Below are positions 1-54,848 of a DNA stretch of 64,000 nucleotides, piece after piece (within the stretch, counting starts at the first letter, position 1; each line of letters opens with the position of its first letter). The DNA lies in the NCBI GenBank assembly GCA_964187785.1, contig OZ076409.1, positions 5,086,001-5,150,000 on the forward strand, written 5' to 3'. The position numbers and the translations under genes are program-made. This stretch comes from Amphiscolops sp. MND2022 (lineage: Eukaryota). The notes below the pieces were generated by a model. The model had not been told where the DNA came from. It saw only the letters and a list, made by a program, of their open reading frames with translations, and did not search any database.

Positions 1-1039
1 GGCTGGCAACGTTGCTCCATTCAGAAGAATCTCAGTAACGGTGAGGAACTCTCCATTATTGGCTCGGTTTCCACGCAAAATTCCTGCTAGACGCAGCTGG
101 TGTTTTTTGTGGCTCTTTTCTGCGCTTGTTTTTTCTGCTCCGGTTGGGAGAGGTTTTGATTTGAGGATCTGAACAACAAGGCAAAGATCGTAGACAATTC
201 ATGAGAAAATCTGTACTCACAGCTCGGGGAAAGGGTTGATGAAAACAGAATAAGAAACGAAATTGACCGAAGCCTCGGAATGAAACACATGATATACTTA
301 ACTGTGGTGACGTCGGTCCGCTGTTATGTGACCTCTCTGATGTCTCAGAGTTATGAAATTGCTCTTCGTGCAATGAAATCTTTCAGCTCCTCCGTGAAAT
401 TTAGCAAACACCAGTCTCCATAGTCTTCCTTCCCTTTGAAAAAAAACGTTGGCACGAAATAGTACACGGGATTTAAGCTTTAAGCGTTTGTAACTAGGCA
501 CATGACTATTCGGGAAAGATTAATTTCATCCATTCGGTCGCTTCCGCATCCGATGTTCCATGTTTGGCGATGATAAGGTTGCAAGCAGTGAGAAAATTCG
601 AAAGCGAAACGTCAGATTGTGGATGAACAGATCTCTCGATGGTTTCTGATACTGGATTATCATCATCACTTCACAACAAAGATTTTGATGTATTATCAAA
701 AATTAGAATCTAGCATAAAAACTAACCTGGAGTTGGATAATACAGGAGACAATATGCAGGTATCTGCAGTGATTGAAGAACAGGGGTCAGCGGTGCTGAA
801 AATTTCTGCATCACTTTCAGAAGAACTGTCGCTTGGATCAGCAATTTGGAAGGACAAAGTTTCTGGGTCGCAATCAGAATCACTTGTGACATCACTGAAA
901 TCCCGGTAATCAGTTTTTTTGGTTTTTTCTACAGTTTTGGTAAAAAAAATCCCCGTCTTCGAAGGTTGACTCTTCGAGCACCGACAGAGCTCCTAGGAGT
1001 GCTTGTTTTGGGAGCAACATACGTTTGTTTTGGATCACG

Positions 1040-1806
1040 GCATATTTTTCGGTATGCGGACATTGACAGTTACAGTTACCGGTGTCGAAGTACTCGGGTT
1101 CTTAAAAAACCGTCAAGCGTTGCCCAGGGAATACATCTTTCAGTGTTACCAGCTTCACACATTTCCTGCTTTATATTTCGATGCTAAGTAGTCGCAGTTG
1201 GGTGCACAACAATGATTAGCAAATCGGCGCACTCCAACAACCTTTACCCTGGCACTGGAACACATTGAGGTTGGTTCCAGAATTGATACAGGATCAACGA
1301 ACTTATGTCTGTTCTCAGGAATCTTTTCAGTAAAACCGCGTGTGCAATCCAATTTCGTTTTACTTGGAATCGTTGCACCAGTATTGTTTACCAATTGGTA
1401 CCCATTGTAATTGTCTAGCTCGAAAGTTAATCCATAGGATAGGGCATGTTGATACGCTTCGTGCAGTAAGGAAATGACCTTTCTAACAATTGACTGAGAT
1501 TCAAGCAAGTCATAGTAAAGATCAGTTGTTAAAAGAGGAACTAGACTGCTCACTTTTCGTTCCGGTTTTTGGACTAAATCCACAACAATGTGGCCATCGC
1601 ACAAAGCAATCAACTCACCCCGTTTTTGCGGAATTTCCATTTTCACTAAAACCAACCGACAAACAGCCTAAATTACTTCGTGAAACCTTTTTTCCAGTAA
1701 AAAAGCAAAATTCTGGAGAATACTGAAAATTAATAGTCTTACAGACAGTCCCCACAAGCCCCAAAATCATTTGTGGTTCCGACAGCCTTACAACAGCTTT
1801 TTTCAA
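1040..1806 (-). pseudogene. SET-domain lysine methyltransferase pseudogene, SUV4-20/KMT5-like (copy 1, with a 210-bp deletion)
   Basis: ORF 1155-1655 has RRFANHCCAPNCDY (SET NH motif). After a frameshift near 1165 the reading continues RKCVKLVTLKDVFPGQRLTVF*EPEYFDTGNCNCQCPH, resembling the SET C-terminus and post-SET CxC of SUV4-20 proteins. Confidence 0.75.
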
Positions 1807-1829
1807 ATTTAGAAAAATTTCAATTTAGA

Positions 1830-2365
1830 ATATCAGCTGCACACGCAAGTTGAATAATTACGAAAAAAAATCATTCGGTGTCATTCATTAAAAGGCGCGA
1901 CTCCTCCGCTGAGGCAGTTGCTTTCATCAGAAGAGTGAATCAGAATATAGGCCGCACACGCAAGTTGAATAATTGCGAAAAAAAATCATTCGGTGTAATT
2001 CAATAAAAGCCGCGGCTTTTACGCTGAGGCAGTTGCTTTCATCAGAAGAGTGATTTAGACCATAAGTCGCATACGCAAGTGGAAAAAATTCGAGAAAAAA
2101 AGCTTTCGGTGTAATTCATTAATAGCCGCGGCTACTACACTGAGGCAGTTGCTTTCATCAGAAGAGTGATTTAGAATATAAGCCGCATACGCAAGTTGAA
2201 AAATTACGAAAAAACCGCATTCTGTGTCATTGATTAAAAGCCGCGGCTACTACGCTGAGGCAGTTGCTTTCGTCAGAAGAGTGATAAGCCGCGGCTACTA
2301 CGCTGAGGCAGTTGCTTTCATCAGAAAAGTGATTTAGAACATAAGCCGCATACGCAAGTTAAAGA
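1830..2365. repeat. ~117-120 bp minisatellite (about 4.5 units)
   Basis: The core TACGCTGAGGCAGTTGCTTTCATCAGAAGAGTGA recurs, and the sequence between cores is also repeated. Confidence 0.9.
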
Positions 2366-3780
2366 ATTCAGGTTCGTTTCTGATTAGCAGCAAGAGTAGC
2401 TTCTCTGACTGCCATTTCTGGAGCTCTGGGGTATTTTCGACGGACAACAACTGATAACATAAAACTTATAGTAAGATATCAAAAAGAAACAGCAAAAGTC
2501 ACATTAAAGTCAAATCTTTAAACTTTTCCCGCAATTCCTGATCACATGGATCGCGAATTCCGGTTGACTTCCGCTTGGATTTGGCGATCAAGGTATTTGC
2601 TAGCTTGTTGGCTTTCGCACTTCCAAAGATGTGCTTCGGAAGCGTCCTTCCGAACTTACTCAGCTCTGAGCCGGCAAACGTTTCATGAGGTTCACTCCTT
2701 CATGCATAATTGGTTCTGCATCCTTCGAATTGTCGGCTGGCAACGTTGCTCCATTCAGAAGAATCTCAGTAACGGTGAGGAACTCTCCATTATTGGCTCG
2801 GTTTCCACGCAAAATTCCTGCTAGACGCAGCTGGTGTTTTTTGTGGCTCTTTTCTGCGCTTGTTTTTTCTGCTCTGGGAGAGGTTGGGAGAGGTTTTGAT
2901 TTGAGGATCTGAACAACAAGGCAAAGATCGTAGACAATTCCTGAGAAAATCTGTACTCACAGCTCGGGGAAAGGGTTGATGAAAACAGAATAAGAAACGA
3001 AATTGACCGAAGCCTCGGAATGAAACACATGATATACTTAACTGTGGTGACGTCGGTCCGCTGTTATGTGACCTCTCTGATGTCTCAGAGTTATGAAATT
3101 GCTCTTCGTGCAATGAAATCTTTCAGCTCCTCCGTGAAATTTAGCAAACACCAGTCTCCATAGTCTTCCTTCCCTTTAAAAAAAAACGTTGGCACGAAAT
3201 AGTACACGGGATTTAAGCTTTAAGCGTTTGTAACTAGGCACATGACTATTCGGGAAAGATTAATTTCATCCATTCGGTCGCTTCCGCATCCGATGTTCCA
3301 TGTTTGGCGATGATAAGGTTGCAAGCAGTGAGAAAATTCGAAAGCGAAACGTCAGATTGTGGATGAACAGATCTCTCGATGGTTTCTGATACTGGATTAT
3401 CATCATCACTTCACAACAAAGAATTTGATGTATTATCAAAAATTAGAATCTAGCATAAAAACTAACCTGGAGTTGGATAATACAGGAGACAATATGCAGG
3501 TATCTGCAGTGATTGAAGAACAGGGGTCAGCAGTGCTGAAAATTTCTGCATCACTTTCAGAAGAACTGTCGCTTGGATCAGCAATTTGGAAGGACAAAGT
3601 TTCTGGGTCGCAATCAGAATCACTTGTGACATCACTGAAATCCCGGTAATCAGTTTTTTTTCGGTTTTTTCTACAGTTTTGGTAAAAAAATCTCCGTCTT
3701 CGAAGGTTGACTCTTCGAGCACCGACAGAGCTTCTAGGAGTGCTTGTTTTGGGAGCAACATACGTTTGTTTTGGATCACG

Positions 3781-4750
3781 GCATATTTTTCGGTATGCGG
3801 ACATTGACAGTTACGGTTACCGGTGTCGAAGTACTCGGGTTCTTAAAAAACCGTCAAGCGTTGCCCAGGGAATACATCTTTCAGTGTTACCAGCTTCACA
3901 CATTTCCTGCTTTATATTTCGATGCTAAGTAGTCGCAGTTGGGTGCACAACAATGATTAGCAAATCGGCGCACTCCAACAACCTTTACCCTGGCACTGGA
4001 ACACATTGAGGTTGGTTCCAGAATTGATACAGGATCAACGAACTTATGTCTGTTCTCAGGAATCTTTTCAGTAAAACCGCGTGTGCAATCCAATTTCGTT
4101 TTACTTGGAATCGTTGCACCAGTATTGTTTACCAATTGGTACCCATTGTAATTGTCTAGCTCGAAAGTTAATCCATAGGATAGGGCATGTTGATACGCTT
4201 CGTGCAGTAAGGAATTGACCTTTCTAACAATTGACTGAGATTCAAGCAAGTCATAGTAAAGATCAGTTGTTAAAAGAGGAACTAGACTGCTCACTTTTCG
4301 TTCCGGTTTTTGGACTAAATCTACAACAATGTGGCCATCGCACAAAGCAATCAACTCACCCCGTTTTTGCGGGAACTCCATTTTCACTAAAACGAACCGA
4401 CAAACAGCCTAAATTACTTCTTCTTTTCCCGTAGAAAAGCAAAATTCTGGAGAATACTGAAGATTAATAGTCTTACAGACAGTCCCCACAAGCCCCAAAA
4501 TCATTTGTGGTTCCGACAGCCTTACAACAGGCCTGTCGAAACTAGGTCTCGAAAACAACAGTTGAACGCTCCCCCTGTTTGGTATGCTGCTGAAGGTATT
4601 GTATGAATGTAACAAACCAGCTTTGAGATTTGCGAGAACTGAGGATACACGCAAAGGTTTACAGATTGAACACAGAGGCGAAACCGCGCTTCGCATACAC
4701 TTGCGGAGAAAGTTGCAAACTTCAAGAAAAACCAAATCAGCTTTTTTCAA
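3781..4750 (-). pseudogene. SET-domain lysine methyltransferase pseudogene, SUV4-20/KMT5-like (copy 2)
   Basis: ORFs 4409-4750 and 3896-4387 plus the frameshifted C-terminal part. Same SET motifs and the same frameshift and stop as copy 1. Confidence 0.75.
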
Positions 4751-4771
4751 ATTTAGAAAAATTTCAATTTA

Positions 4772-5410
4772 GAATATCAGCTGCACACGCAAGTTGAATA
4801 ATTACGAAAAAAATCATTCGGTGTCATTCATTAAAAGGCGCGACTACTACGCTGAGGCAGTTGCTTTCATCAGAAGAGTGATTGAGAATATAGGCCGCAT
4901 ACGCAAGTTGAAAAAATTCGAGAAAAAATGCTTTCGGTGTAATTCATTAAAAGCCGCGGCTTTTACGGTGAGGCAGTTGCTTTCATCAGAAGAGTGATTT
5001 AGAACATGAGCCGCATACGCAAGTTAAAAAAATCGAGAAAATAAGCTTTCGGTGTAATTCATTAAAAGCCGCGGCTACTACGCTGAGGCAGTTGCTTTCA
5101 TCAGAACATATGTCGCATACGCAAGTTGAAAAAATTCGAGAAAAAAGTTTTCGGTGTAATTCATTAAAAGCCGCGGCTACTACACTGAGGCAGTTGCTTT
5201 CGTCAGAAGAGTGATAAGCCGTCGCTACTACGCTGAGGCAGTTGCTTTCATCAGAAAAGTGATTTAGAACATATGCCGCATACGCAAGTTGAAAAAATTC
5301 GAGAAAAAATGCTTTCGGTGTAATTCATTAAAAGCCGCGGCTTTTACGCTGAGGCAGTTGCTTTCATCAGAAGAGTGATTTAGAACATATGCCGCATACG
5401 CAAGTTAAAG
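4772..5410. repeat. ~117-120 bp minisatellite (about 6 units; copy number differs from the first array)
   Basis: Same core as 1830-2365. Confidence 0.9.
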
Positions 5411-5413
5411 AAT

Positions 5414-6218
5414 TCAGGTTCGGTTCTGATTAGCAGCAAGAGTAGCCTCTCTGACTGCCATTTCTGGAGCTCTGGGGTATTTTCGACGGACAACAACTGA
5501 TAACATAAAACTTATAGTAAGATATCAAAAAGAAACAGCAAAACAGTCACAATTAAGTCAAATCTTTAAACTTTTCCCGCAATTCCTGATCACATGGATC
5601 GCGAATTCCGGTTGACTTCCGCTTGGATTTGGCGATCAAGGTATTTGCTAGCTTGTTGGCTTTCCCACTTCCAAAGATGTGCTTCGAAAGCGTCCTTCCG
5701 AACTTACTCGGCTCTGAGCCGGCAAAAGTTTCATGAGGTTCACTCCTTCATGCATAATTGGTTCTGCATCCTTCGAATTGTCGGCTGGCAACGTTGCTCC
5801 ATTCAGAAGAATCTCAGTAACGGTGAGGAACTCTCTATTATTGGCTCGGTTTCCACGCAAAATTCCTGCTAGACGCAGCTGGTGTTTTTTGAGGCTCTTT
5901 TCTGCGCTTGTTTTTTCTGCTCCGGTTGGGAGAGGTTTTGATTTGAGGATCTGAACAACTAGGCAAAGATCGTAGACAATTCCTGAGAAAATCTGTACTC
6001 ACAGCTCGGGGAAAGGCTTGATGAAAACAGAATAAGAAACGAAATTGACCGAAGCCTCGGAATAAAATACATGATATACTTAACTGTGGTGACGTCGGTC
6101 CGCTGTTATATGACCTCTCTGATGTCTCAGAATTATGAAATTGCGGTGTGATGTCTCCATTTCCGTTACACCCAAAATCAACCGAACTGTCACAAGTGGA
6201 AGAATCACTATCAGACAT
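5414..6218 (-). pseudogene. Decayed gene with a C-terminal BEN-domain-like region; 5'-truncated duplicate at ~2370-3102
   Basis: ATG at 6218 (MSDSDSST...). With one frameshift the 3' part reads IMHEGVNLMKL/AGSEPSKFGRTLSKHIFGSGKANKLANTLIAKSKRKSTGIRDPCDQELREKFK. A phase-1 67-nt intron-like gap (5497-5563, AG intact, donor AT) is followed by VVVRRKYPRAPEMAVREATLAANQ. BEN assignment is by eye. Confidence 0.5.
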
Positions 6219-6499
6219 TCTCCAAATTAACCACTATGGTCTGAAAATCAAAAATAGAAAACGAAATTGCACCAATTTTCGCAGGATCTGGTAACAGCAG
6301 CCTGTCAACTTGTCTACAGCCAGCACCACACATTGCGCCTCGACTATTCATCTGGCAAATCTAGCTCTTAGCAAGTTGAAAATTTCCTTACTTCATTCGG
6401 AAATAGAAATTGAAGTGATATTCCGAACGGGTCTTTCGAAACAACGTCCAACAAAACTCGACCTCCTTTATTCATTGTCTCTTTAAACAACTTGGAAAA

Positions 6500-8465
6500 G
6501 AACTATTCGGATACCAAATGTTTTCTCGTGACTTGAACTGGTTGAAATAGTATAGGACTATTCTCAAAGATGTTTAAAAAACAAAATGTGAAGACAATCC
6601 AGTAAAAACACGAAAATATCGATACTTGAATGTTGTACAAAAAAGCACCAAAATTGATCAGCGACAAATCTTCGATCGAACATTTCGAGAAAGCTGGGTT
6701 GAAGCAAGTTGAAAAGAAAGAAGACAACTCACAATACAGTAAAGTACAAAGTAAACGAGTTTAACAATTGCATTGCAGGTTGTTGATATTTTAGAACATC
6801 GTGAAACATGCAAGTTCAGCGAGCAGCAAAAATTGCTGCTCTGAACTGGCAATTGAAACACCTTAAACAAAAAATATTGCAAAATACAGCATTGTTTGCG
6901 GGAAAAGCAGACATATTGGGCTACCAAGCGTTCTCCAGGCATATGTTTAAACGTATGACTTGATTTATTAGTCCATTGTTGAGCTGCTTTTTCTGATTTG
7001 AACCGTTGCCTCCGCTCCATATTGATTGACTCCACGAACAGCTTCTTCCTCCCGATGGAGAAAATTCCGCTCAACAACCTCTGGAAACACATATCAAGTT
7101 CAGCGGATCGAAGAACTCAAGCAAGGTGAGCAGTGACTCGCGACCTTTTTCGCGGAAAACGGAGTTTTCAAGTGAACAATTATTGATTGTTGCTCAAGCG
7201 AGTCTGATAACTCTTCGACTGCAAAACACTTTCAATATAACCTTTCGACACTGCTTTACTTTCGGAAATTGGACGGAATGGAAACGCGAACAATTATGTG
7301 CATACAACCTTTGAAAATTCTCTCCAATTCCGGATCAACTGACTTTCTTGTGTTCTTCTTCTCTACCCGGAGACCTAAACGCTGTTCCACGAGTTGGCAA
7401 TCCTTCCCCTCCCCAAACATTTGAGATGCAAGAACGGGCCATCGGTTGATAGCAAATCCAAAAGATTTTGTCCAATTATTTCTATAGATTCTCCTTTATC
7501 TGAGGTGCTGTAAAAAACGGCGTTGCTTGATGTTGGAAAGGCTGCCGAACGCTTGAAAACTTCAAGAAGCTCATTCTGTAGCATCCTATTCTGCTTCACG
7601 AATTTTCTCATTACTTTCTCATTGGTCTGTGTCATTTGCCTCAAATATTCATCAACTTTCTCATTCAGTTTGTCGATCTTTTTTTCTTATTGGCAGCTTC
7701 GAGCCTTAAAAAAATATAAAAACAATTCGGTTGCAACGCGAATTTGTCGTTTTGAACGCAATGTATGTCCAAATACCTGTGGCGTCATTTCCGAAGCCAA
7801 GATTGAATCTCCGATCTCAATTGGTGTCGACCGAAAAGGTGCAACAGGACTCATATTCACAACATGTAGAACAGAGGGATTGGCCTGAATGGAATTCTCA
7901 CCCAAAACAATCCTAGGTTTCTTTTGGTGCTTCAAAGACAATGATTTTTTCCGTTTCAAGGCGTTAGTTGAAACATCGGGCGACTGAGCAACAGGTTGGG
8001 TGGAAGGATCGTGAACTTGCCATTCATGCTCGAAGTTTTCTTCAAAAAAGTAAATTTCATTTTACCTCTTGTCCAGCAAACTATTTTATTTCAATTGACC
8101 AAAACAACTCCAATTCAAAACCTACTCGTTTAGACTCAGCACACTTGAATTTCCGCCGGTTTCTCACGCCTTTTTCACCACTTGGTTCGCTTTTCGCTTC
8201 ACTTTCTCTGTCTCGCAGATGCACACAAGTGACATGTTGTAAGTCCCTTGTGTTTTTCACCCTCACCTTGTCCCTATTTTTGAGATCCAGCTTGGCTCGA
8301 ACTGAGAAATCAGCTGGCCAGAGACTACTGTTGTACTCCATGATTACATGAACTTGGTCCCCTTTGGTATAAAATACCCATCGTTTTTGACTGGCCAGTT
8401 TGAGACGATCGTAATCCTCATCATTCAACTGAACGTCCGCGGAATTCTCTATCAGGCAAAGGCAT
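6500..8465 (-). pseudogene. Fragmented coding-like sequence of unknown function
   Basis: A run of same-strand ORF fragments (8081-8428, 7687-7959, 7375-7644, 6658-7092) with protein-like composition. ATG at 8465 follows a strong polypyrimidine-AG. No domain recognised. Confidence 0.35.
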
Positions 8466-8737
8466 TCCTCGAAAATCTAGAAAAAAGGTACGGTTGAGAA
8501 ACGCCGAGCGGGGCACAAAACATCTTCGTCAGCTAATTGTGTGAGCGGAGCCAACTGCAATAACTGATTTAAAACTGGACTGACTTATTCTTCCCGAGAG
8601 CCTCTCAAACAGCCCTCTCTGGGAAAAAACCTGAAAACGACTCAAAAGACAAACACAAACATTCCTTGAACTACAAAAATTTTTTACTTCACATACTAAT
8701 GGAGAATCTCATCAATACAGGGTCAAAGCCCTTTTGT

Positions 8738-9283
8738 TCATCCAGACCGAGTATATTTATCACAAGTGAAACAGGTCAATAGATCAAAACATTTTGAACA
8801 ATTGAACTTGGTGCACAGTTGGCATTGTATGAAACTTGATTCTTCGATCCCAAATTTCAGCCTACAGGAGGAGCATTTCAATTGCTTTTCAGGGTATTTG
8901 TACGAGTGCATTTGTCTCCTTTTGACGCTGTACCACCACTCTCTACCTGCTGCTTGTCTATTCTCCCGCCCTTCTGGGACAGCTATATTGAGACGCTTTG
9001 CGAATTGATAAGCATACTGGAGAACATGCTTCAGGGGAGTCAAATCTGGGAAAGGGAGGTTACGAATCTCCTTCAGGAAACTTTTTTCTTCGCCATCGCT
9101 CAGCATAGTTCGAACAGTTGGTGTTGTTTTATTTAACCGTCGCGACAAGGTTGTTCTTCGAATGTTAGTTAGGAGAGCAGCACGCGATTTAGAAAAGCCT
9201 TCCTTGACCACTAACGAGCAACCAAGTTCCAGTTCCAGAGAACTGTAACCAACCTTGCGTTTTTGGATGTAGGTTCTGGGCAT
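8738..9283 (-). CDS. 181-aa protein: pogo/Tigger-type psq HTH + CENP-B HTH fused directly to a four-CxxC zinc finger; no DDE domain
   Basis: MPRTYIQK start, SKSRAALLTNIRRTTLSRRL (psq-like HTH), LSDGEEKSF...AGREWWYSVKRR (CENP-B/Tc5 HTH), then CSSC..CQLC..CSKC..CFTC. Uninterrupted from ATG 9283 to the stop at 8738. Confidence 0.72.
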   Translation of the reverse strand: MPRTYIQKRKVGYSSLELELGCSLVVKEGFSKSRAALLTNIRRTTLSRRLNKTTPTVRTMLSDGEEKSFLKEIRNLPFPDLTPLKHVLQYAYQFAKRLNIAVPEGRENRQAAGREWWYSVKRRQMHSYKYPEKQLKCSSCRLKFGIEESSFIQCQLCTKFNCSKCFDLLTCFTCDKYTRSG

Positions 9284-9719
9284 GGCCACTGAAAAAAGGT
9301 ACCATATCAAAAGTACAGAGAGTTAAAGAGTTATTGTACTTTGTTAAAAAAAAAATAGAGAATGAAACCAGCGTTTTCCACAGACAGCCTCTTACAAACT
9401 GTTAGAAGAAAAAAGTCATCGTCGTAGCACTCTTACGTGTATTGTAATATATATGGAATCACAGAACCCGAAAATTTTCTTTCAGAAGGGGAAAACACTC
9501 AGGCAATGTTGTGTGCCGTCTTCATTGAAACGAAACAGTAACGATAACTCGCTCAGGATAAAACGTCGATAACTGGACATTTTATTGTTTGTGAATCAAT
9601 GACGTTGAGCAAGAAAGGTGAATGACAGCAACAAAGTAAACAACAGGCAAAGTTATTTCAAATTTTTCAAATTCAAAAAAATGCAAATAGAAGGCTCAAT
9701 GTTTTCTATTCAAGAAAAC

Positions 9720-10185
9720 ATAAGGTTTCCTGCAGAAGTTCCGCGTAGCAATTATTCGTCAAATTGACGCCATCAACAAAGCTTTTTCTCTCTTCCAATT
9801 TCATATAACATCCACGGAAACGCTTCCGCAAGAGTGCGTTCAAGTTCCGTACTTCCAAAGGGTAGGCCAATAGACCGGCATAATTTTAACATTTACGCTT
9901 GGGCCTATCTTGTCAAGGAAACGTTTGAAAGTGTTTGAAACCTGTGCCCACCAGTCGGGTTTCATATCTTTCCTGGGATGAAAAGCAATGTCATTTCCGC
10001 CGCATTGAATAACCTTAACTTGGCCAATGTGCCAAATTTGGCACATTTTGTTTCTGCAAATTCTTAACGCACCAGCTGATTGTATGGTAAAGCAAACCCT
10101 TTAATAAGAGTTTCAGACAATATTGCATAGCATTCGGCGCCTTTTCACGGAAAATTGACGTGATGTCTCCAAAACCCAGAAAATG
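9720..10185 (-). pseudogene. SGNH/GDSL-hydrolase-like pseudogene
   Basis: Frameshifted fragments in the expected order: FGD (block I-like, ~10165), VIQCGGNDI (block III GxND, ~10000) and FVDGVNLTNNCYAELL (block V DxxH-like with H to N, ~9770). Confidence 0.5.
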
Positions 10186-10332
10186 ACGCGAAAAAATCAA
10201 AAGAAAAATAAGTGCAGATTTTCCGTTTTCCCAGTTTTCGTTTGTGCCCCTTTTATCCCACTGGTATCAACATTGGGTCAAAGCGTCCCCAGCATGTTTT
10301 GAAACATGCTGAAAAGCAAGCAGAGACATGAC

Positions 10333-10453
10333 GCGTGCAAAGTTTTGGCGCAAAGTTCGGAGCCAGTGCGGCGAAGCCGCACGCCAGCGGAGAACTTCGC
10401 GCAAAAAACTTTGCGCGCAAGGGGCCCGCGCTAGCGGGCCCCAAGGCCAGCAG
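10333..10453 (+). other. GC-rich double hairpin, possible rolling-circle transposon terminus
   Basis: An imperfect long stem GCAAAGTTTT...AAAACTTTGC encloses TGCGGC-GAA-GCCGCA. It is followed by a perfect GGGGCCCGC-GCTA-GCGGGCCCC hairpin (10421-10442) and CAGCAG then a T-rich flank. Confidence 0.5.
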
Positions 10454-11509
10454 TTTAAAAATTGATTTGAAAGCCCCAATGCTCCTCTTTCGAACGCTGT
10501 ATAAATCGTTTGTCGGACTTGTATAGTTCAGGAGATATTGCGGTTTAAAGTTGAAGCACCTGATTTTTGGATGCAACAAGATTTTTCCTGGCCAACTTAA
10601 GGATAACAACATCGAAGGAGCTCAGCATTGGAATAAATGAAAAGGCATCTCTCAGGCAATACCGTGATTTGAATTGGAAGGTAATTCTATTCCTTGTGCT
10701 TATCCAAATGTTTCGAGAGCCTCCCAACATGGAAATCTCTGAAAAAACATACTTTTGCTTTTTCGCTCCTGAAAACCATGAAATTATCAACTTTTCACTC
10801 TCACAGAAACATTTTCCAATTTTTGATTCAGATTTGTAGTTCTAATTCGCGGAAGAAATTACTTCCAATTCCTGCTTGAGGAAATACGAATTCTGTTCTG
10901 TTTCACATGAACGTTTCAGAAAATTTAAGCATGTTAGTTCTGTATCCATTAGTTCTATTTCTTTAGTCCGACTTCTCCTTTAGTCCAAAAACTCAAAACA
11001 GCTTTTAGTCTCAATCAAAACAATCGATATAGAATTCCTAAATAAAATTGTTTCAATATCATGACATCATATCAAATTTAAAGAAATTGATAATTCCGGC
11101 AGTCATTTGAGTACCTTGCGAACAAATTGAAGTTTTCGACCCAAGACCTTTCGACCACTTTCCATTCGACCTGTTTCATTCGACCTGTTAGTAAACAGGA
11201 AACAGGTCGAAAGAAACCGATCGAAAGTGCCTGCTGTGTCCGTGATCGAATTCCTCGGATAGAATTCCAGCGATCGAAATCAAAGCGGACGCATATGAGA
11301 CAGTACAAATATCAGAACCAACGAAAAAGAGTGAAGCAGACACACAACTCATGAACAACCAAACTGAAGACTTGGAGGATTCCAAGATCCATTCAAAAAC
11401 CAAGTCAGGACCTAGAAGACTTCCAAAGTTTTCGGGAATATCGTAGCCAACTGCCACACAGCCGACACTGACATCCACAAAATGAAGTACTTTCAGAAAA
11501 ATGTCAAAG

Positions 11510-13930
11510 TTGCATAAGAGGCCTTGATTTAAGCGACTGGGTGCAAGAGCATCAACAACCGTGACATCCCACACCAGCTGTTTACCCATTTTCCAAGGAA
11601 TCATGATAACACCGTCTGGGCCTTTGCCGTCGGTTCGGTACAGTCCACGCGGTTCGAGCTTTGAAGGCAAGTCGAGAGATCCCAACGTCTGCTTTATGAG
11701 AGAATTGAGAGTAGCATGACGTGAGAAGCGACCCGCACTTTTAGTGCAAGAAAGACCGTGTAAACCGTCCCGTTCAACTTTTTCCACAGTGGCAAGTACG
11801 CGCAACAAAGATGTTGGCTCCGACACGTAAACCAATCGGAATTCAAAGCTGCTGATCATCAAGTTTCAGGCCTAGGTTCTTGCAAGGAACAACGTTGAGC
11901 CACTGAGACCCGAATTTGCCTTGATGAGCGTTGAAAACTTTGGTACGTTTGTCATCCATTCAATGAATTAAATCTTGGGTGGTTTTGACGTAGACAGGTT
12001 GGGCCCAGCTTTTCTGGGTTCCATCGAGAGGATTTTCTTGTTCATTCGTGAAGCTCAGCCATTTCTCAACCGCTTTTGTCAATGAAATATCTTCGAAGGT
12101 TTTCGAGAAAATCGTCGTGAGAAAGTCACTCGTACCACAAGTAGAGGCCAAAAAGGCAGGTAGTGCTAATAATGATGCGGATGAAACCCCAAGACCACCT
12201 ATTTCAGCAGGCAGAGCCAGCTGAGTACTCGAAAATTCGTCAAAGTTTACCTTACACACTTTGGCAAGCCCGTCGCGTACGGTTTTCTCATACGTTTTCA
12301 AAAGAGCAGGGTATTTCAAGCAGGTACTGGTTCTCAGGAAATACAACAATTTTGGCAGACTGAAGCAACTTTTCAACATATAAAAACCATAATGCGCATC
12401 CGGTTTGTCAACAATTTCATTAACTTTTCCAGATCGACAATTTTTTTCCAACAAGTGTACTTTCGCTTTCGGGCCAAGCGGTGGACCAAAAATGATCAGT
12501 TCATCGTTTCGTTGGGGTTTTGATCCCGCGGCAGATTTTTTAAAAGATGTTACAATTGTCGATCGTGGTTTTTTGGTGACGTCACTGAAGAAAAAACTTT
12601 CAAACTTCGTGGTATTGATTTTAAGTCCTAGTGTTTTTCCGGCTTCAACAATATTCCTAAGGTCTTTCGAAACGGTCCGGTTATCATTACTTAAATTTCT
12701 TTAGTCGAGGTACCATAGGTTTATTTTCCACTCCAAAATTGAATCCGAAAACGAAACTGGAGACTCAAGATCTTGCTGGGTCCCTTCAGAAGACCTAATC
12801 ACCGAATCACCGTTGGAATGAGAACTGAGTTGGCTTTACGCCGAGTGTGAGTACAGTGTTGAAGAATATACGCTAGATGAGCCTGCTTATCATGCTCTGA
12901 TTACCACTGACGGTCGCCTCGAGAAGGCAAAAATCAATGAACCGAACTGAACAATTGGCGAGAAAATGACTTGAGGCAGTACCGGATGTTGGTCTTCTTA
13001 GATCACCACTCGATGGGAAGGTTGAAGACGCGCCTGATTGCGAGATGATTCCAAGAATAATCGGGAAATTTAGCAACTTATTCGCCAACATGCTTGCTCG
13101 AAAGACCATTTCGGCTTGTTCGATCACTAGTCGTTTCACACCCTACATGGAATGTTGAAATCTTGGAAGTGAAGACAACACTTTTACAAGAACAAAGATG
13201 TGGAATTCCAGCAAGCCTTGTTTTTGCAACCAAAACTTTCGAAAGAAGCTTACGGCACATTCAAAATTACTTACAGTGTGGTTAAGGCACAAGAAAGGTT
13301 CATTTGCATCTCTCCTTGAGATGTTTCAGGAGAGTGGGTTTACCATTCGTAAATTCTTTCCAAACAGAGCAATTGATGCAACGCAAGGTTTAAGTGACAC
13401 ACTTGCTCTGCTTTGGTGAAAATGAGCATATGAAGAACAAAAGAGGGTCCTAAACTCCTTAGTTGAAAAATCAGAAGCCTCTACTACTACCATAAGTATC
13501 TGACGAAGTACTTTGATTGTTGAAAAGCGATCGGTGTTGAAGTGACCAGCAATGAATATTGATATCCATCAAAAGAAGCACTTTCAGAAAAAAACAAGGT
13601 GAACCAAACAAGCAACGAGCAACACCCACAACAGTTTCAACGGAAACTCGACATTATTCGAAAAGTCAGACCGAGACGTCTGAATTTTTCGTTTTCTGAA
13701 AAACTAATACGGGAACTTCTTCACAGCGGACGCATATGAGACAGTGAAATTAACAGAATCAACAAAAAGAGATCGAAGCTGACACATAACGCAGGAACAA
13801 TTAATTTGGAAGTTTGAATATTTCCAAGATCCATCCAAAAACCAAGTCAAGACCTCGAACACTACTTTTTTCGGTAATTATTTTAACCAAATGACACATA
13901 ACCGACACTGAGATCCACCGAAAGAAGCAC
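11510..13930 (-). mobile_element. Decayed RLE-type non-LTR retrotransposon, CRE-like
   Basis: Broken RT motifs (SEGTQQ-DLESP ~12780, NLWYLD* ~12710, LPAEIGGLGVSSA ~12195). Zinc knuckle and restriction-like endonuclease segment HGLSC...RHATLN...EPRGL..DGKGPDG...PWKMGKQLVWDVTVVD. Many stops and frameshifts. Confidence 0.8.
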
Positions 13931-15698
13931 AATCAGGGTGAGCAAAGTAATCCAAACAAACAACGAAAGAAAAAACAGGTTTCCAGAAAAATTGAAAATT
14001 TTGAAAAGTCAGGACATTCGAAAATTCCGTTCGCAGAAAAAAGCCTAAAGGAGTATACCTTCCATCGGAGAGGAATGATACAAATTTAAAAAAACGAATC
14101 AACACAGAGAAGGTGGAAAAGACACACAACACGAGATTACCGGCAATTTTTCTGATGGAGTTCATGTTATTAAAATTTGGTCATTTCATGGGATTCATGC
14201 TTTTGCCCTCTAATGCAACCCAAATTTTTAAAGTATTGCGCTTTTGTGGACCCCATGTTTCTAGAGTATGGCTTTTTTACGGGAATCAAGTTTCTTGAAG
14301 CTTACCGATTTTATGGATTCCAGGTTTTTAATTTTATAGCCCTTTTATGGAAATCATGTTTTTTTGCAGTATGGCACTTTCATGAAACCTGCTCTTCTGT
14401 TACTATCCTCACAAAAAACAAGTCATATTAGGACTCATAATTTCTTCTGGAAGTGGCCACTTTTGCTGAAAGCTCAACATAATTTGAACCCATGTTTTCA
14501 AAGTATGGTTATTTCATGGAATGCATGTTTTTAAAGTATGTTTTTGAAGTTTTAAAGATGAAAAACCGAATAAAGTCACCGTGTTAGACAGAGGAACTCT
14601 AATTTCTGCCTAATTAATGCTGACAGTGAAAACTTGTTTAAAAAGCACGTTTTTCATAATTTGAACAAACTATGGAAACCATTCGTTCCATAAAATGACC
14701 ATAGTATTCTCATAAAATCTTTTTGTATGGTCATTTTATGGCTGAACTGATTTCATAAACACCATATATGACATTTTATGATCTACATGTTTTTCGTATG
14801 GTGGTCAACCCGGGATACTTATCTGGATCTCAAGCCATATGTGAATTTATTTTCGACCGGCACTGTGTGACGTTTTTTGAAAAATTTGAAGTGTCGCAAA
14901 TAGGGTTCCCTTTGGTTTTTGACATTTTCAGTGAGGAAAAAGTCTTTTTGGGCTCCCTTTGGGTTTTTAAGCACTGTGCCACGTTTTTCGGACTGTTTTT
15001 CTGAGCCAACTTACGTCGTTCCCGGTTTTCTTTGACGCTTTGGCGATAATTTTTGAATTTGTGATTTAACCCAAAAGTTGATTCAACCCAAAATGAGGTT
15101 GAGCCTCAATGATACACCTAGATATTTTTTCGAGAATACCTTTCCATTTGAAAGACTTTTCGAAAAAACTGCCATCAGCAATGAATATTTCACTTTTTTG
15201 TTCTTTCCAAAAGTTGTTCAAGTTTGACCGATTCTAGAATATCATGGAATGTTTGGCTCTTTTCTGTTTTCTCCCCCACAACCAAACACTTTTTGTAAAA
15301 TTTGTGAAAAAATTATAACAAAAAGACTTGAATACAAACCAGAAACCTTCAATTTTAAATTTACAGGGTGACAGCTTTGAATTGAGATACAAACTTTGTT
15401 CACACTATTTTTCTTTGTGAATTGACGCAGTCTCAATGAGAAATTGAACGAACATCTTCCTGTTTTGAGTAACAACAACCAGTTAATTCGAACTTAATCA
15501 CAGTCAGAATGTGGGGAAAATGTTTTGTTTAAACGAAAAACTATTATAATGCACGTTAACTTCCGGTTATGGAAAAAGAATGTACTTTTACTTAGGCTAG
15601 TGTTAAATTTTCAAGGAAATTCACTTTCAAAAACTTTGGTGGTAGGGGGGGGGAAACAGAAAAGAGCCGAATTTTTGAGCAATTTCTGTCACTTCCAG

Positions 15699-22381: not shown

Positions 22382-23469
22382 CAGTTAATTGGCCGCTTAT
22401 TGTGAGACCGCTTTTCCGCATATCGCTTATTTTAGTATACCGCTATTTCGGTTATTTGAAAAATCGGTGTGCGTTCATTCCACCCCAAAATCATTTCACC
22501 CCATATCACTTCACCCCATATCATTTCACCCCACATTCATTTCACCCCATGTTCATTTCACCCCACATTCATTTCACCCCACAATCATTTCACCCCACAT
22601 TCATTTCACGCCATTTTCATTTCACATCATATTGTAATTATACAAAAGCGTCTCGCCTTAATTAACCAATTAGCAATTAAACTTTGATGCCTACTGTTTT
22701 TGAATCAGCTTTCATTTGATTGTCAGTTTCTGGCCGGTAGGATTTTTTGCCGTAGAAACAACCGAATAAGAAATTTTTCGTTGAAGATTCGCAACATCCA
22801 TAATTGTAAATTTTGATTGACAGAAGAAAAATGATTTTTTCAGCGCCTTGTTCAGAAGGATAACAATTCCAATAAGTGAAACTTTTCGGTTTCGAATTTG
22901 TGGTTCACATAGCAACCATCGTTTGCTTATCTAATTGGTAATTAGATTCAAGACGCTTTTCTATTACCGCTAAGATTGAAATTGTGTGGCTTTAGTAATT
23001 AATATGAGACGCATTTGATAATTTAAATGTGGGGTGAAATGAACGTGGGGTGAAATGAACCTGGGGTGAAATGAACCTGGGGTGAAATGAACGTGGGGTG
23101 AAATGATACTAAACCGAAAAATCGCCTATTCCGCTTCCGCTTATCTCTTATTAGGAGAAAAAATGTCAGAATATTCAACTCCAAAATCTCATTCACTTTG
23201 AGAAACATGAGGTTTTCCAACATTTTACTCCCAAGGCGATTCCGTTTCTCGGCTTCGTTTCACACGTGCAAAACAATTTGAAATTTCTTTTGTTTAAAAT
23301 ACATTGGAGACGTTTTGTTATTACGATAATTACGTACAAGTATTTTTCATTTCCGAAGCCGCTTATTTTTTGCTCATTGGAATTTAATTGCCGCTTATAC
23401 TGCTATTGCTTATTTGTTGCCCGCTTACACTTATTTTACCCGCTTACGCTTATAGCGGTTCATTCACTG
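22382..23469. mobile_element. Old hAT-type non-autonomous element
   Basis: Imperfect TIR CAGTTAATTGGCCGC / GCGGTTCATTCACTG, TSD CCTGAACG/CCCGAACG (7 of 8), CCGCTTA sub-terminal repeats. Confidence 0.65.
22466..23115. mobile_element. Foldback-like MITE whose arms are 16-bp tandem repeats
   Basis: GG...CC termini, 8-bp TSD GAAAAATC. (CATTTCACCCCACATT)n on the left and its reverse complement on the right. Confidence 0.75.
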
Positions 23470-24497
23470 CCCGAACGACAAGAATTTGAGTCAGTACTAG
23501 GCAATATCAGAATCCCGAAACGGGGAGAAACCTAATTAGGAGTAGGAAAAAAATTGCAATTTATGAAATCGTACCATTTTCTCTCTCGACCTTCATATAA
23601 AAATTTCAATTTTCTCACACTATCCATAGAGTTTGAGCATTTACAACAATTAAAAAGAATTAGCACAGTCATTCTACACCCAAGTTGCTGCTTGTATGCA
23701 AGGCAAGATATGCGGTCGATACTTCTTCTTTAAACACCGATATGCAGTTCAACCCAGTTATGGGGTCACCGTTGTGCGGTCAGGCACTCAATCGACGTTA
23801 AAAAAACCTATCAGAGACATGCAAACAGTCTGTGGAGATTGATTCGAAGTATAACTACTCCAAAACGACTAAATTTTGCCGGCTAATAAGCCGCAGTTAT
23901 TTTTAAAACTACTTGGACCACATATCCAGTTGTTCCGAGTTCGAGGTACAAAAAACACGTATGTGTGAACTTACTCCGGAAGCACCCATGTGAAATCTCC
24001 ACATTGTTGGTATAGTCTCTCAATTTCTTAATTGTATTACGATCACTTGGAACCAGAGATAACGGTACAGATCAAAATGAAAGTTTCAAAAAGGAGACAA
24101 TATGTAGTACAAAGTGTTGAAAAGGAAGACAGTGTCACCTAGAAATACAAGTACTACTTCGTTTCCTACTACTTTTAATTTTGTATTGCTTTTTGATGCT
24201 TGTTCATCAGAGACATGCAAACAGTCTGTTGAGATTGATTCGAAGTAAAACTACTCCAAAATGACTAAATTTGCCGGCTATTAAGCCGCAGTTATTTTTA
24301 AAACTACTTGGACCCCATATCCAGTTCGTTAGACGTGTTGATAATTACCCGATCTGTTTATCGCAGGTTCAATTTTCTGAATTGCGTAGTTAACCAGTCA
24401 ACTTGTGTTACCTCATTCGATACAATTGTGATAATAAGTTAACAAAATAATAGACGAAATTGAATTTTGTCAACGAATTCGATTTCAATCTAGTTAG

Positions 24498-24646
24498 CTA
24501 TAACACAACAACGAGCATAAGTCCATCTTCGTTAATCTGTTCGGGGAGTGCGTTGTCTCCAAAAACCAACTCTGGGGTGTTTAAAAAAACTAGTAGCCCC
24601 ACCCCTAATTTAAGACACCCTTCTGACCTTCTTCTGACCACAGCCG
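24498..24646 (+). CDS. Possible host gene exon C' (phase 2 to 1, or terminal exon to the TGA at 24714)
   Basis: TCTAGTTAG acceptor, GTAATT donor. S/T/P-rich frame YNTTTSISPSSLICSGSALSPKTNSGVFKKTSSPTPNLRHPSDLLLTTA. Confidence 0.4.
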
Positions 24647-25813
24647 GTAATTTGGGAAGCTCTGAGTTTAAAGGCGGTCAACAGCGCCCCTGTTATTTTC
24701 AACATATCGCCTGAAGAGTTTGAGTCGATGTTCAGGAAGTACAGATCTCCCAGTACCTTTTCACAGGCTTTTTTCGTGCTACATCATGGAAGCTTTCTGG
24801 CTTTCAATGATGACTCACAACATTGACTCAACATGAACTCAAACTATCTTATCTTTACTTCCTGACTTTTCACGCTTGTTTTCATACCTTTTTGTTCAAA
24901 CTGTTAATCGTACTGGTGACTCAATAAACGAAATATAAGACGTTTCTTATACTGGCTATGAAATGTAGTGCCTCTGAGAGGGTCAGAAACAACCAGAAAT
25001 TTCTATCCAACGATTTTATCCATCAGTTGACACTATTGTGCCAATTTTGGTTCCCCGAAATTGACAATGAATCAGTGTCGAAAGCATTGAATCAGAAACA
25101 GCGGAATGTTCTATGCTCTGTCAAACCTTGGTTCTTCTACCTCAAATGCGATGTTTGCTCAGAAGCCAAACAAGGAACTTTAAAAGATCTCAAGATGAAG
25201 TTCGAGCAATTTCAAAATTCTCAAAAATGATTGCTCATTATTATTCCATTTACTATTTCCAATATTTATTGATTTACATTTTCTAACTTTCATGCTCACT
25301 TTTCTTCTCAAGTTAAATTTATATGGTTCTTAATTTTTTTCAATAGTTAAAGCAATTAAAGCAACAATAGATATAAACAAGGTCATCAACTTGATTACTA
25401 CCCATTGCTTCTTTGAAAATCAGTTTCAATTCTGAGTTCTCCAGTACAATATATTTTGTATTTATATTTTCACAGCCCTGCATGGTATAATGAGGAAATG
25501 GGGAACATCACTTTCTTTCTTCCAATATTCATTCAACTTTCATTCGCTCAATTTTCAACAACTTTCCTTCATCTCAGTTTGAACATGCAGTCCTTTCAAG
25601 CTTTCATTGCGGCTTATGAGCTAATATTTGCTTCATTATATGCTGCATGTTCACAGTGTGCTTCAGTTCAGCTAACAGTTAGCTAGTTAATACGGCTAGT
25701 TAGCTAATGTGAAGCGCTAATGTCCACCGAATGAGGAACTGATCGCTGATTGGTCAACGAATTGTGTTTGAAACGCAGGTTGCAGCGAAAAGTCATCAGA
25801 TATAATTTGATAT

Positions 25814-26509
25814 CATTTGATAATTTAAATGTGGGGTGAAATGAACGTGGGGTGAAATGAACCTGGGGTGAAATGAACGTGGGGTGAAATGAACCTGGGG
25901 TGAAATGAACGTGGGGTGAAATGATACTAAACCGAAAAATCGCCTATTCCGCTTCCGCTTATCTCTTATTAGGAGAAAAAATGTCAGAATATTCAACTCC
26001 AAAATCTCATTCACTTTGAGAAACATGAGGTTTTCCAACATTTTACTCCCAAGGCGATTCCGTTTCTCGGCTTCGTTTCACACGTGCAAAACAATTTGAA
26101 ATTTCTTTTGTTTAAAATACATTGGAGACGTTTTGTTATTACGATAATTACGTACAAGTATTTTTCATTTCCGAAGCCGCTTATTTTTTGCTCATTGGAA
26201 TTTAATTGCCGCTTATACTGCTATTGCTTATTTGTTGCCCGCTTACACTTATTTTACCCGCTTACGCTTATAGCGGTTCATTCACTGCCCGAACGGCAAG
26301 AATTTGAGTCAGTACTAGGCAATATCAGAATCCCGAAACGGGGAGAAACCTAATTAGGAGTAGGAAAAAAATTGCAATTTATGAAATCGTACCATTTTCT
26401 CTCTCGACCTTCATATAAAAATTTCAATTTTCTCACACTATCCATAGAGTTTGAGCATTTACAACAATTAAAAAGAATTAGCACAGTCATTCTACACCCA
26501 AGTTGCTGC
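25814..26509 (+). repeat. Near-identical dispersed duplicate of 23012-23690
   Basis: Same sequence from CATTTGATAATTTAAATGT to CTACACCCAAGTTGCTGC, differing mainly by one extra 16-bp repeat unit. Confidence 0.9.
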
Positions 26510-26534
26510 GTGTGTGTGTGTGTGTGTGTGGAAT

Positions 26535-29500
26535 TTAGTTAGCGCCCAAAAGTGTTCTTTTGGCAAGCGCTATCGACAAGGCGGGGTCTTCAGACAGGAG
26601 TTCTAGGCGGGGTTCTGTTGTGCCGAAAAGTTCTTGGCGGCACGCTGCTGTAGATTGGCAGTTCATCCAGTGCTCCAAAGTTTGTGGCTCTTCTTGACAT
26701 TTGGGGCAGTTGGGATCTACGTTTTCATTCATGAGGTGGGAATAGGCTTTCAAATGGCGGCAGTGTCCAGCTCTTAATTGTGCAAGCAAGGTGGCGTCTT
26801 TTCGGTTGTCTATTTGTTCTTCATCTCTTTTTTCCGAGTATCCAGCGTAGGTCCGTTTTGTTCGGTGGTGCGACGGAGCGGGATCCCTGAAGGACCGTTT
26901 GATACATGATAGGGCGGCTTTCAGGCTGGTACTTTCGGGTTGTTCTGTTGTGAGTTTAGAACCGTTTTTTGCTTCTTCGTCAGCTATTTCATTTCCCTTC
27001 AGCTCGGAGTGTCCTGGTACCCACTGGGCCCAGATCGTTTTTTCGCTTCTGTCCAAAAATTTCCTCAGTTCTTCGGTATCTCGGGTTTGTGAGTTCAGGG
27101 CTGTGCAGAGGGATTGGCTGTCTGTGCAAATGAGTATTTCTTTATCGTAGGGGTGGTGTTTTTCCAGGATTTCTAGGCACGACAGGAGGGCTGCCTTTTC
27201 TTCGTCGTAGGATGAAGTGATGATCCTGCCTCTTTTCCTGATTATCCTGATAACTTCTGGGTTGGAGGCACTACCTCTGGTGAAAATGGCTGCGTACCCT
27301 CCGTCTGTTGTGCCGGCAATGGCTGATCCATCTGTGTAGATAGTTAAGTTGCAATTGAACGAGTCAAGGTGAGATATAACTTCATTTAGAGTTACGTCTT
27401 TGTTTCGCCCGTTGACTGTGACGTTGGTGTGCCAATTGCTGGAGCTCAGCCATGGCGGGTGGTTCACTTGCACTGTTTGTCTTGGGTTCAGTATGGCTGT
27501 TGGAAGGGTTTTGTTGAGTTCCTCTGATTGCCTTCGCCAGCTGCTTCTTTTAAGTCTGTTTGGTGCTGGCCTGTACAGAATTTGGGTGCGTGGATGATCA
27601 GGTGGGTTTCTTGATGCTTTTTGGTATGATGAAGCTATGAGTCGGTTGCTGTGAGTGCGGTAGCTACTTATGCCACTTTCTATCTGCAGTGCCTCGATTG
27701 CAGTGGAGCTGCACTGTCCAGTTATGGCGCGGAGAGCTTTGTTCTGTGACCGCTCCAGTTTATCGAATTGTGTTTGACTCAGGTTAGGTTGCCATGCTGG
27801 TGCTGCGTAATCTAGGACACTTCTCTGGGTGGCAATGTATATTTTCCGAAGTGTCTTTTTCTGCCAACCCCAGTCACGGGTTGCTACAGCGCGTATTAAG
27901 TTCGTGCGTTTGGATACCTTTTGGGAGATTTCCTCAGCGTGGGGTGCGAAGGTGAGACCCCTGTCCATTTTAATCCCTAGGAACTTTGGAGTGGGGTTGA
28001 AGGGCATGACCTCATCATTCAGTCTCAATGTAGGTTTCCATCTGGCTTCAGTGGTCCCGGAGGCAAAGAAGGTGACTTCGCATTTTGTTTGATTTAGGCT
28101 GAGCTTGAATTTTCTGCTCCATTCTGCCACGTGATCGATGGCTTTCTGGACTCTCTCTACGGCTTTTTCTTTGTTGTTGTCACATGACCATACTGAGAGG
28201 TCATCTACGAAAAGGGCGTGTTCCGCGGGTAGGTTTTTCGTTACTTCGTCAATAAAAAGGAGAAACAGAAGGGGGGCTAGCACAGATCCTTTGGGAACGC
28301 CCTGTTTTATTTTGTGACTTCTACTCATTGCTGAACCATATAACACTCTGGCTTGGCGGTTATTCAAGAAAGCGGCAATCCATCTGATGAATTTTGCTGG
28401 GATTCCTTTCTCTGATAGTATGATCAGTAGTCTCTCTCTCCATACTGTATCAAAGGCTTTTGAATAATCGAAGAGAGCCATGACTGTTCTCTTTGGCTTT
28501 TTTTCTTGAAAACCATCGTCAATGGCTTGGGTCAGACGTGTTCTTAGGTCTTCGCAGCATCGGTTTTTCCTGCCTCCGCACTGTGCATTGCTCAAGAGTC
28601 CGTTTGTTTCGACGATGTGGATGAGTCTGGTGGCAATCATTCTCTCCAATAATTTGACTAAGCATGAAGTGAGGCTGATAGGTCTGTATGAGGAAATTTC
28701 AGATGCTGGTTTGCCCGTTTTTAGCAGGGGAATGATTGTGGCATTCTTCCATTCTTGTGGGCATACTCCTTGGTCCCAGGAAAGGTTGAACAGCGCTAAC
28801 AGTTCTTCTCTTGCTTTCGGGCCAAAGGCTTTTATGAACGCGGGTGTTATTTCGTCGGGACCAGCTGCTCCATTTTTCCTCATGCTTCTGATCGCTTTGT
28901 TGAGTTCACTGGCTGAGAAGCTTTGTGTGCTGCTGTTGTCTACCGATGGGGCGTTCACGATCTTTTTTGAGAGTCTGTTTTCGTTACGTTCTTCCTTGTT
29001 AAAGGTCAATTTGCTCTGACGGGCATAATAAGCTGCGAAGGCGTCCGCTTTTTTGATGTTGCTGTGGAGGACGCGTTTGTTGACTGTCAGGGCCTCGTTT
29101 GGTTGTGAAGGTGGTGTTGTGTTGCCGATAGAATGGAAGACACGCCAAAGCTTGCTGGGGTCAGTGCTGAACTCCGTTTCTTCAATAAAAGATCTCCAGC
29201 TGCGTTGTCTTTCCGTCTCAATTTCTTGACGTACCTTTTTGCATGTTTCAATCCATTCTTGGCGGTGCGTGCGTACCATCCTTCTTAGCTTGTTCCGCTG
29301 TTTGATTAGAGTTTTGATAGCCGGAGTTAAGTAGCTCTTTGTTTTCTTGCCTGGTTTTGTTCGGGGGACCGTTTGTTTTGCTGCGCTGATGACCGCCTCT
29401 TGGAAGTTCTTGATTCTCTTGATGGTGTTGTTTTCTGTACTATCTACTTTTTCTTCTAACAGTTCGCTAAAGGCAGATAGGTCAGCGTTTTTCTTCCATC

Positions 29501-30202
29501 TCGGTTGTCTCTCAAGGGGCTTCATTTTTTTGCATTTACAGAGGAGTGTGGTTGTTGACGGCAAGTGGTCTGAGCCACCTATGTCTTCGTTTGTGGTCCA
29601 CTGTATCCTGTTCAACCACTGCGATGGCACCAGGAAGACGTCTGGCGTGCTCTCATTGCCGGTGGCTCGGTTGATTCTGGTTGCTGAGCCATCGTTGGCG
29701 CAGTATAAGTTGCTGTCCGATAGCCACTCTTCTATCCGTTCTCCTCTGCTATCTGGAAATTGCTTTGGGTCCCACAAGGCTGAATGGCCATTCATATCAC
29801 CAGCGATGAAACAGGATCTTGATGCTGGGATTTGATCCGTGTAGATGACTTCTTCACCATTGTCGCGGTTTGGGGCCATGTAGACGTTGCTAATTGTGAG
29901 CCATTTTCTCTTGTCAATTCGGACTCTGAAGGAGATTGACTCAACAATACCAACAGTTTGTTTTCCCTTCGGTATCTCCGAGTATGGGATGCTGTGCTTG
30001 ATTAAGCAGAGTAGTCCACCGCCATCCCCGTCTCTATCGTACCTAATGGGAGCGTAGCCTTCGAAAGTGGGCGTTTTGTTCTTTTGCTTGTACTTTGTTT
30101 CTTGAATCAGTGCTATATCGATTTGTTCTTTTTTCAGCCTCTCGTTAAGCTCAGGCCATTTAGTAGACAAGCCGTCAGCGTTCCATTGGAGGATCTTTAA
30201 TG
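26535..30202 (-). CDS. LINE polyprotein: APE endonuclease, reverse transcriptase, RNase H, C-terminal zinc knuckle
   Basis: LKILQWNADG, IQETK, GDMNGH, TPDV, GSDHLP (APE). YRPISLTS, DYSKAFD, GVPKGS, LFVDD, KFLG (RT). YTDGS, CTDSQS, WVPGHSELKGNEIAD (RNase H). CPKC...EHWMNC. Confidence 0.95.
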
Positions 30203-54847: not shown

Positions 54848-54848
54848 G

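Follow-up and report, generated by a model that had tools for sequence, protein, structure and literature searches.

Which kind of locus gathers, within about 10 kb and on one strand, a SUV4-20-like SET gene, BEN-like genes, a helix-turn-helix (HTH) zinc-finger gene, and an SGNH-hydrolase-like relic? We analyzed a 64,000-nt stretch of the genome of Amphiscolops sp. MND2022 (contig OZ076409.1, positions 5,086,001 to 5,150,000, hereafter the window), in which positions 363-10453 pose this question. The original prediction, made from the DNA letters, had read this interval as a large mobile element, now dead, of Helitron-like or other type, with chromatin-related cargo. According to our analysis, the region probably represents the 5′ portion of one copy, now decayed, of a cut-and-paste transposon of the EnSpm/CACTA-Mirage type (CMCT), which is large and multi-copy. 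A dead mobile-element copy with such cargo was thus supported, since five of its pieces co-occur on other contigs, while a Helitron-like nature was not, the sole mobilization gene found being a DDE transposase directly behind SET.

No transposase had been seen in the window originally; this proved incorrect, as transposase starts were found at 3408-3103 and 668-363. With the stretch from SET to the end of this frame as a query, three proteins were retrieved among 5366 candidates: the window SET, P0025 (a 324-aa SET relative), and P0026. The last of these extends the transposase frame that is cut at 3103 and 363, and it matched the profiles DUF1258 (E 1.9e-5) and Transposase_21 (E 1.1e-4), both below the curated cut-offs, with only a partial domain present. 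DUF1258 represents the Mirage group, which is close to CACTA (PMC3985635), and EnSpm/CACTA and Mirage-type families have been united as CMCT (PMC12730594). The top Atlas match (0.95) of a member of the transposase cluster was a tnp2-domain cluster, the family being carried by 16% of that cluster's members. The window frame aligned to residues 7-55 of P0031 with 76-93% identity; a first catalytic-type Asp follows at residue 96, and this Asp motif was kept in all four relatives of the transposase exon. Judged by its sequence, the transposase is of the EnSpm/CACTA-Mirage type (CMCT). A scan of the JGI metagenomes with patterns from this exon and from C1, an exon of no assigned identity, gave no relatives.

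The assignable coding pieces of 363-10453 were all located on the minus strand, as had been predicted, the genetic code in the window was standard eukaryotic, and the gene content pointed to a probable animal host. The order along this strand was as follows: a stem-loop with a palindrome, the SGNH-like relic, the HTH gene with a finger of eight cysteines (HTH-Cys8), C1, the first BEN-like gene (BEN1), a gap of ~700 bp, the second BEN-like gene (BEN2), a minisatellite, SET, and the cut transposase (Table 1). Self-comparison revealed that positions 1-6144 form a tandem array with a ~3-kb unit consisting of BEN2, the minisatellite, SET, and the cut transposase. Positions 6144, 3102, and 362 are equivalent, which gives units of 3042 and 2740 bp, and units 1 and 2 are 98% identical across the SET-transposase half. 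The array, the second SET copy that it brings into the window, and the second BEN-like gene had been overlooked in the original prediction. Unit 3 probably encodes P0009, a near-identical SET protein from a contig of the same size (315,810 bp). The transposase is severed by the tandem junction about 40 residues ahead of its first catalytic-type Asp; therefore, the transposase of this copy cannot work. Stops or frameshifts relative to the relatives were present in C1, BEN1, SET, and the transposase of the window (four of the five pieces compared), HTH-Cys8 alone being intact. The interval had also been described as intron-poor, which is doubtful in view of three GT-AG gaps, and as free of the miniature inverted-repeat transposable elements (MITEs) of the remaining window. 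Dispersed self-matches indeed covered zero of 363-10453 versus 12.6% of 14-52 kb; however, they were also zero in 52-62 kb, so that the distinction is weak.

The linkage of five pieces (HTH-Cys8, C1, BEN1, SET, and the transposase exon) was followed in cluster tables, where nine other contigs were told apart by size alone. The clusters contained seven HTH-Cys8 members (one of them the window's own), five of C1, four of BEN1, five of SET (plus a three-member cluster from the window's own contig), and four of the transposase exon. All five pieces were present on two of the nine contigs, four on one, three on one, two on two, and a single piece on three; SET was found on each of the four contigs bearing the transposase exon. 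None of 20,000 random draws at 50, 200, or 1000 contigs, with independence assumed, gave four contigs with at least three pieces. Single-copy or unlinked genes, the outcome by which the original prediction was to be judged wrong, were thus not what we observed. In an exact look-up of eight guessed open reading frames of the window, with no SGNH frame included, one was found, as a singleton.

The predicted SUV4-20-like SET gene was confirmed: P0009 matched PF00856 at 3.4e-8, and in a PDB search with SET the top 10 rows were SUV420H1/H2, aligned across the C-terminal ~80 residues. The features by which SUV4-20/KMT5B-C enzymes are recognized (NHxC, FYG, and the CxC post-SET motif, with SUV420 as the best match) were all found. 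The NHCC and FYG motifs were intact in four of the five SET relatives, the fifth stopping just ahead of FYG, while FYG was lost in the copies from the window's own contig.

Between SET and the transposase lies a predicted intron, which would join the two in frame. Its donor, AG/GTTAG, occurs 12 times in 128 kb; its G+C content is 24% versus 40-44% in the flanks, it ends in AG, and its phase suits the passage from the SET tail to the transposase frame. This frame contains no ATG for ~47 codons, up to a conserved-looking head, where three of the four relatives were called from Met. The SET relatives pass through a basic and acidic tail and stop at residue 324, and four full-length relatives have one common tail, which in the window ends immediately ahead of the acceptor. 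The tails of the relatives imply a gap of 66 nt, nearly equal to the 72-nt gap in BEN1. A SUV4-20-like SET spliced in frame onto the transposase N-terminus is predicted from these DNA features, and we regard it as evenly balanced between acceptance and doubt.

The competing explanation, to which we give somewhat less than an even chance, concerns only the fusion and leaves the CMCT element unchanged: SET could be a separate gene, or one nested in an intron of the transposase, whose acceptor would be joined to an upstream exon by alternative splicing as in En/Spm. In its favour, the 324-aa open frame of the SET relatives is closed by a stop that belongs to it, and alternative splicing has been described for animal CACTA elements (PMC1636069). 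Against it, the SET stop is situated inside the AT-rich gap, whose donor is strong, rare, and correctly phased.

The 5′ end of the element is tentatively placed at the palindrome upstream of the SGNH-like relic. The GC-rich hairpin at 10442-10333, originally proposed as a boundary, is real (z -5.5, matched by none of 200 shuffles), and its stem-loop repeats may be subterminal repeats. At the same time, its outer palindrome recurs with three mismatches in 30 nt in the repeat at 42-48 kb (five matches; none in 100 shuffles) and therefore is no proof of an element boundary. CMCT elements are delimited by terminal inverted repeats CA..TG or CCC..GGG with a 2-5-bp target-site duplication; animal CACTA termini begin with CCC (PMC1636069), and here a candidate CCC is present at 10438, the opposite end of the element lying outside the window. 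A second short palindrome with a CCC start on the plus strand was located at 10288-10311, just inside the stem-loop.

The HTH-Cys8 frame (9283-8741 without its stop codon) was intact, as had been predicted; eight C-terminal Cys were counted on its paralog P0001, which also matched HTH_psq (E 0.003), and the HTH runs directly into the Cys8 finger in all seven members. In the Atlas it matched clusters of the psq, CENP-B, and pogo types at 0.76-0.78, scores that offer no more than leads. A nearly identical pyrimidine-rich GT...AG motif of 14-15 nt was noticed at 9305-9286 and 8495-8474 on the minus strand, where it immediately precedes the beginning of HTH-Cys8 and the C1 frame, respectively; both are possibly acceptors.

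The pogo-like head of HTH-Cys8 raises the question of whether the locus is composite or nested, with a pogo-derived HTH gene, a SET-bearing CMCT element, and other relics carried by another vehicle, e.g., a Helitron or Helentron with RepHel outside the window. The palindrome common to another repeat and the occurrence of HTH-Cys8 alone on two contigs, as a separate 98%-identical pair, would fit such an origin, and the capture of SGNH cargo by a fish Helitron has been published (PMC4021074). We failed to find a Rep (HUH)/helicase or pogo DDE piece in the window frames scanned, the DNA left of the window being outside the scan; nor did these frames yield a DDE_1 match, although in pogo/Tigger elements the HTH is followed by a DDE_1 core. 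Since the CMCT transposase is in line and co-oriented with the other pieces, and joins them on two contigs, we consider a composite locus unlikely and a single CMCT element the better explanation.

The remaining cargo was more difficult to assign. The predicted BEN-like gene, judged by the five-helix BEN fold or a Pfam BEN match, obtained weak support: a model of P0016 (predicted local distance difference test, pLDDT, 51) returned BEN domains of five different proteins at Foldseek ranks 1, 2, 5, 7, 8, and 19, all with E>1, whereas no BEN entry was among the top 50 of VIA-align and Pfam gave no BEN match. The second intron of BEN1 (7308-7081) is backed by P0016, which runs through the gap, and BEN2 matched P0016 in tblastn with E 4.5e-6. 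C1 is probably the 5′ part of BEN1; its best fold match was Tudor (Z 4.8), which is not significant and tied with unrelated folds, and for the same reason its assignment as PWWP was unsupported. A by-eye reading of 7116-6270 as the C-terminal half of the transposase with HxxxH was dropped: the stretch overlaps the final exon of BEN1, matched by P0016, no Pfam match was found in six frames, and phmmer on one frame was blank there. The Markov coding score of 6975-6225 was negative in every frame.

SGNH hydrolases are recognized by blocks I, III, and V with a catalytic Ser and His. In the predicted SGNH relic, motifs resembling blocks III and V followed each other in the proper order, whereas block I was broken and Asn occupied the position of the catalytic His. 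This motif pair was present in none of 600 random sequences, the pattern having been picked after the relic was seen; profile searches with the relic were blank, and the assignment is weak. SGNH is not known to have a chromatin role. The proposed chromatin-modifying toolkit held for SET and, weakly, for the BEN-like genes and the Cys8 finger.

A low-copy locus or segmental duplication, in which one to three loci would appear as several copies through haplotypes or re-assembly, with genes that were domesticated or are mere neighbours, seems distinctly unlikely. It would agree with the mutual identity of the relatives, which is mostly 96-100%, the window copy having 86-94% to them (HTH and SET). 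However, HTH-Cys8 formed three sequence groups at 86-92%, and C1 and BEN relatives at ~37-52% were recovered in a representative search; therefore, a family is indicated. Moreover, the window copy is interrupted in most of the pieces compared, and a transposase belongs to the set. An endogenous DNA virus or Polinton-like insert is very improbable: BEN and SET are known from some large DNA viruses, but a pattern scan of viral contigs with SET, BEN, and HTH gave no relatives, no PHROG match was below E 0.03, and both spliceosomal-type gaps and a CMCT transposase were present.

Several points weigh against our interpretation as a large CMCT element with a SET-transposase. Co-occurrence at other loci means a shared contig, matched by size, rather than adjacency, order, distance, shared ends, or independent insertion; the group of 96-100% identity could represent haplotypes of a few loci; and linkage to other copies covers five pieces, with BEN2 and SGNH outside the set. 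Of the full DDE triad and the motifs C(2)C and H(3-4)H, the transposase exon retrieved contains the first Asp motif alone. The acceptor of the predicted intron is AAG rather than YAG, and alternative donor-acceptor pairs are possible. The fold matches for BEN and for Tudor (C1) were not significant. The similarity of SET to SUV4-20 is significant across the C-terminal ~80 residues alone; therefore, its substrate is a guess, for which H4K20 can be put forward tentatively.

The following mechanism may be proposed. The element would be mobilized by the DDE transposase acting on CCC-type ends, while the HTH-Cys8 and BEN-like proteins would bind element ends or promoters, in a role like that of TnpA in maize En/Spm. 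SET tethered to the transposase would be brought to the cut sites, where its target for methylation could be H4K20 or one of the transposon's proteins. The marks laid down by SUV4-20, H4K20me2/3, are known to promote the recruitment of 53BP1 as well as end-joining (PMC9213757). The simplest benefit would be a safer repair of excision and insertion breaks through 53BP1-guided end-joining favoured by H4K20 methylation; alternatively, SET might set the chromatin or silencing state of a new copy. Taken as a whole, a recently mobile animal CACTA/Mirage family with one spliced SUV4-20-like SET-transposase, an independent and still-selfish counterpart of SETMAR, which would steer repair and silencing by H4K20 methylation at its own cuts with BEN-like and HTH-zinc-finger helpers, remains doubtful. 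Were it true, a fusion of an H4K20-type SET to a transposase would also serve a selfish multi-copy CMCT element, and the steering of repair or silencing by a transposon at its own insertion sites would become testable, with the near-identical relatives bearing intact SET motifs as material. Should the fusion fail, this would still be an unusually gene-rich CMCT element.

Table 1. Features at the left end of the window (positions 1-10442).
Feature	Position	Strand	Remarks
Start of tandem unit 3	1..362	-	Continues past left window edge
Tandem unit 2	363..3102	-	Contains part of BEN2, the minisatellite, a SET copy at 1640-727, the gap, and the transposase start at 668-363
Transposase, EnSpm/Mirage-type (CMCT)	3103..3408	-	N-terminal ~100 codons; two frameshifts; second copy 668-363
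Predicted intron, GT-AG, phase 2	3409..3466	-	58 nt; second copy 726-669
SUV4-20-like SET (unit 1)	3467..4381	-	With post-SET Cys motif and a tail of basic and acidic character; frameshifted; stop breaks FYG motif
Minisatellite	4767..5415		~115-bp repeat; second copy 1823-2369
BEN2, second BEN-like gene	5556..6218	-	Decayed; match 5711-5565; copy 2660-2517; tandem junction 6144 inside
Unexplained interval	6250..6960		No coding signal, no database match
BEN1, coiled-coil and BEN-like gene	6971..7941	-	Two GT-AG gaps (7776-7705, 7308-7081); interrupted by a single stop and a single frameshift vs. paralogs
Exon C1, no assigned identity	8125..8554	-	Two frameshifts vs. paralogs; small beta-rich domain
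HTH-Cys8	8738..9283	-	Intact, 181 aa; psq-type HTH, likely CENP-B-type HTH, Cys8 finger; 7-member cluster
SGNH-hydrolase-like relic	9712..10133	-	Contains stops and a frameshift; motifs resembling GxND (~10013) and DGxxL (9774); degraded block I
Imperfect stem-loop, long	10333..10418		~10-bp motif in both orientations; z -5.5; no second copy in window
GC-rich palindrome	10421..10442		Minus-strand CCC at 10438, candidate 5′ terminus

An Rfam search gave no match of note. In the rest of the window, decayed minus-strand frames at 11188-13600 resembled, by eye, a non-LTR (long terminal repeat) retrotransposon with a C-terminal nuclease region, four frames being without a Pfam match; they were flanked by diverged direct repeats of ~217 bp (11280-11496 and 13721-13936, 76% identity). 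A 25-bp inverted repeat with an 11-nt spacer, made of a 14-bp tandem unit, was found at 11165-11225. An intact 1236-aa ORF2 of a long interspersed nuclear element, with endonuclease, reverse transcriptase, and RNase H, was encoded on the minus strand at 26535-31144 and preceded by a Cys/His-rich open reading frame. At 40372-48058, a ~1.92-kb unit occurs four times in tandem (98-99%); it includes MITE-like repeats as well as the GC palindrome also present at 10421-10442. Further local duplications were present at 35403-37516 and 23012-26516. An LTR retroelement with 1925-bp direct repeats (99.6%) occupied 52925-61429, its gag-protease frame having a weak Macro-domain match (E 0.003), and a perfect palindrome of 172 bp was located at 49910-50081.

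Among known systems, the window element resembles animal EnSpm/CACTA elements (TRC, e.g., SmTRC1; PMC1636069) and Mirage (PMC3985635) of the CMCT clade (PMC12730594) in its DUF1258/Transposase_21 matches, splicing, co-oriented extra genes, and candidate CCC end. Animal TRC elements are described as ~5-9 kb long, with no mention of SET, BEN, or SGNH in the available text (PMC1636069), whereas the window element exceeds 7 kb before the transposase start. HarbingerS and the MuDR of Phytophthora are likewise DNA transposons with a SET histone-methyltransferase gene (PMC12730594); they differ in belonging to other superfamilies and having oomycete hosts, whereas SET of the window is SUV4-20-like, part of a predicted fusion, and from a probable animal host. 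Maize En/Spm with TnpA and TnpD similarly combines a transposase with element-encoded DNA-binding regulators, and possibly shares subterminal repeats with the window element, whose putative helpers are, however, of unrelated folds (psq/CENP-B HTH, BEN-like) and have inferred roles (PMC1636069). A literature search, with Repbase Reports and subscription journals outside its scope, revealed no SET-bearing animal CMCT element, nor any paper pairing such elements with SUV4-20. SETMAR, the SET-transposase fusion known to us, is a domesticated primate gene. In SETMAR/Metnase, SET is likewise N-terminal to the transposase and the protein is tied to break repair (PMC2847698); it combines, however, a mariner transposase with H3K36 activity, whereas the window probably holds a copy of a multi-copy CMCT element in which the fusion is predicted.

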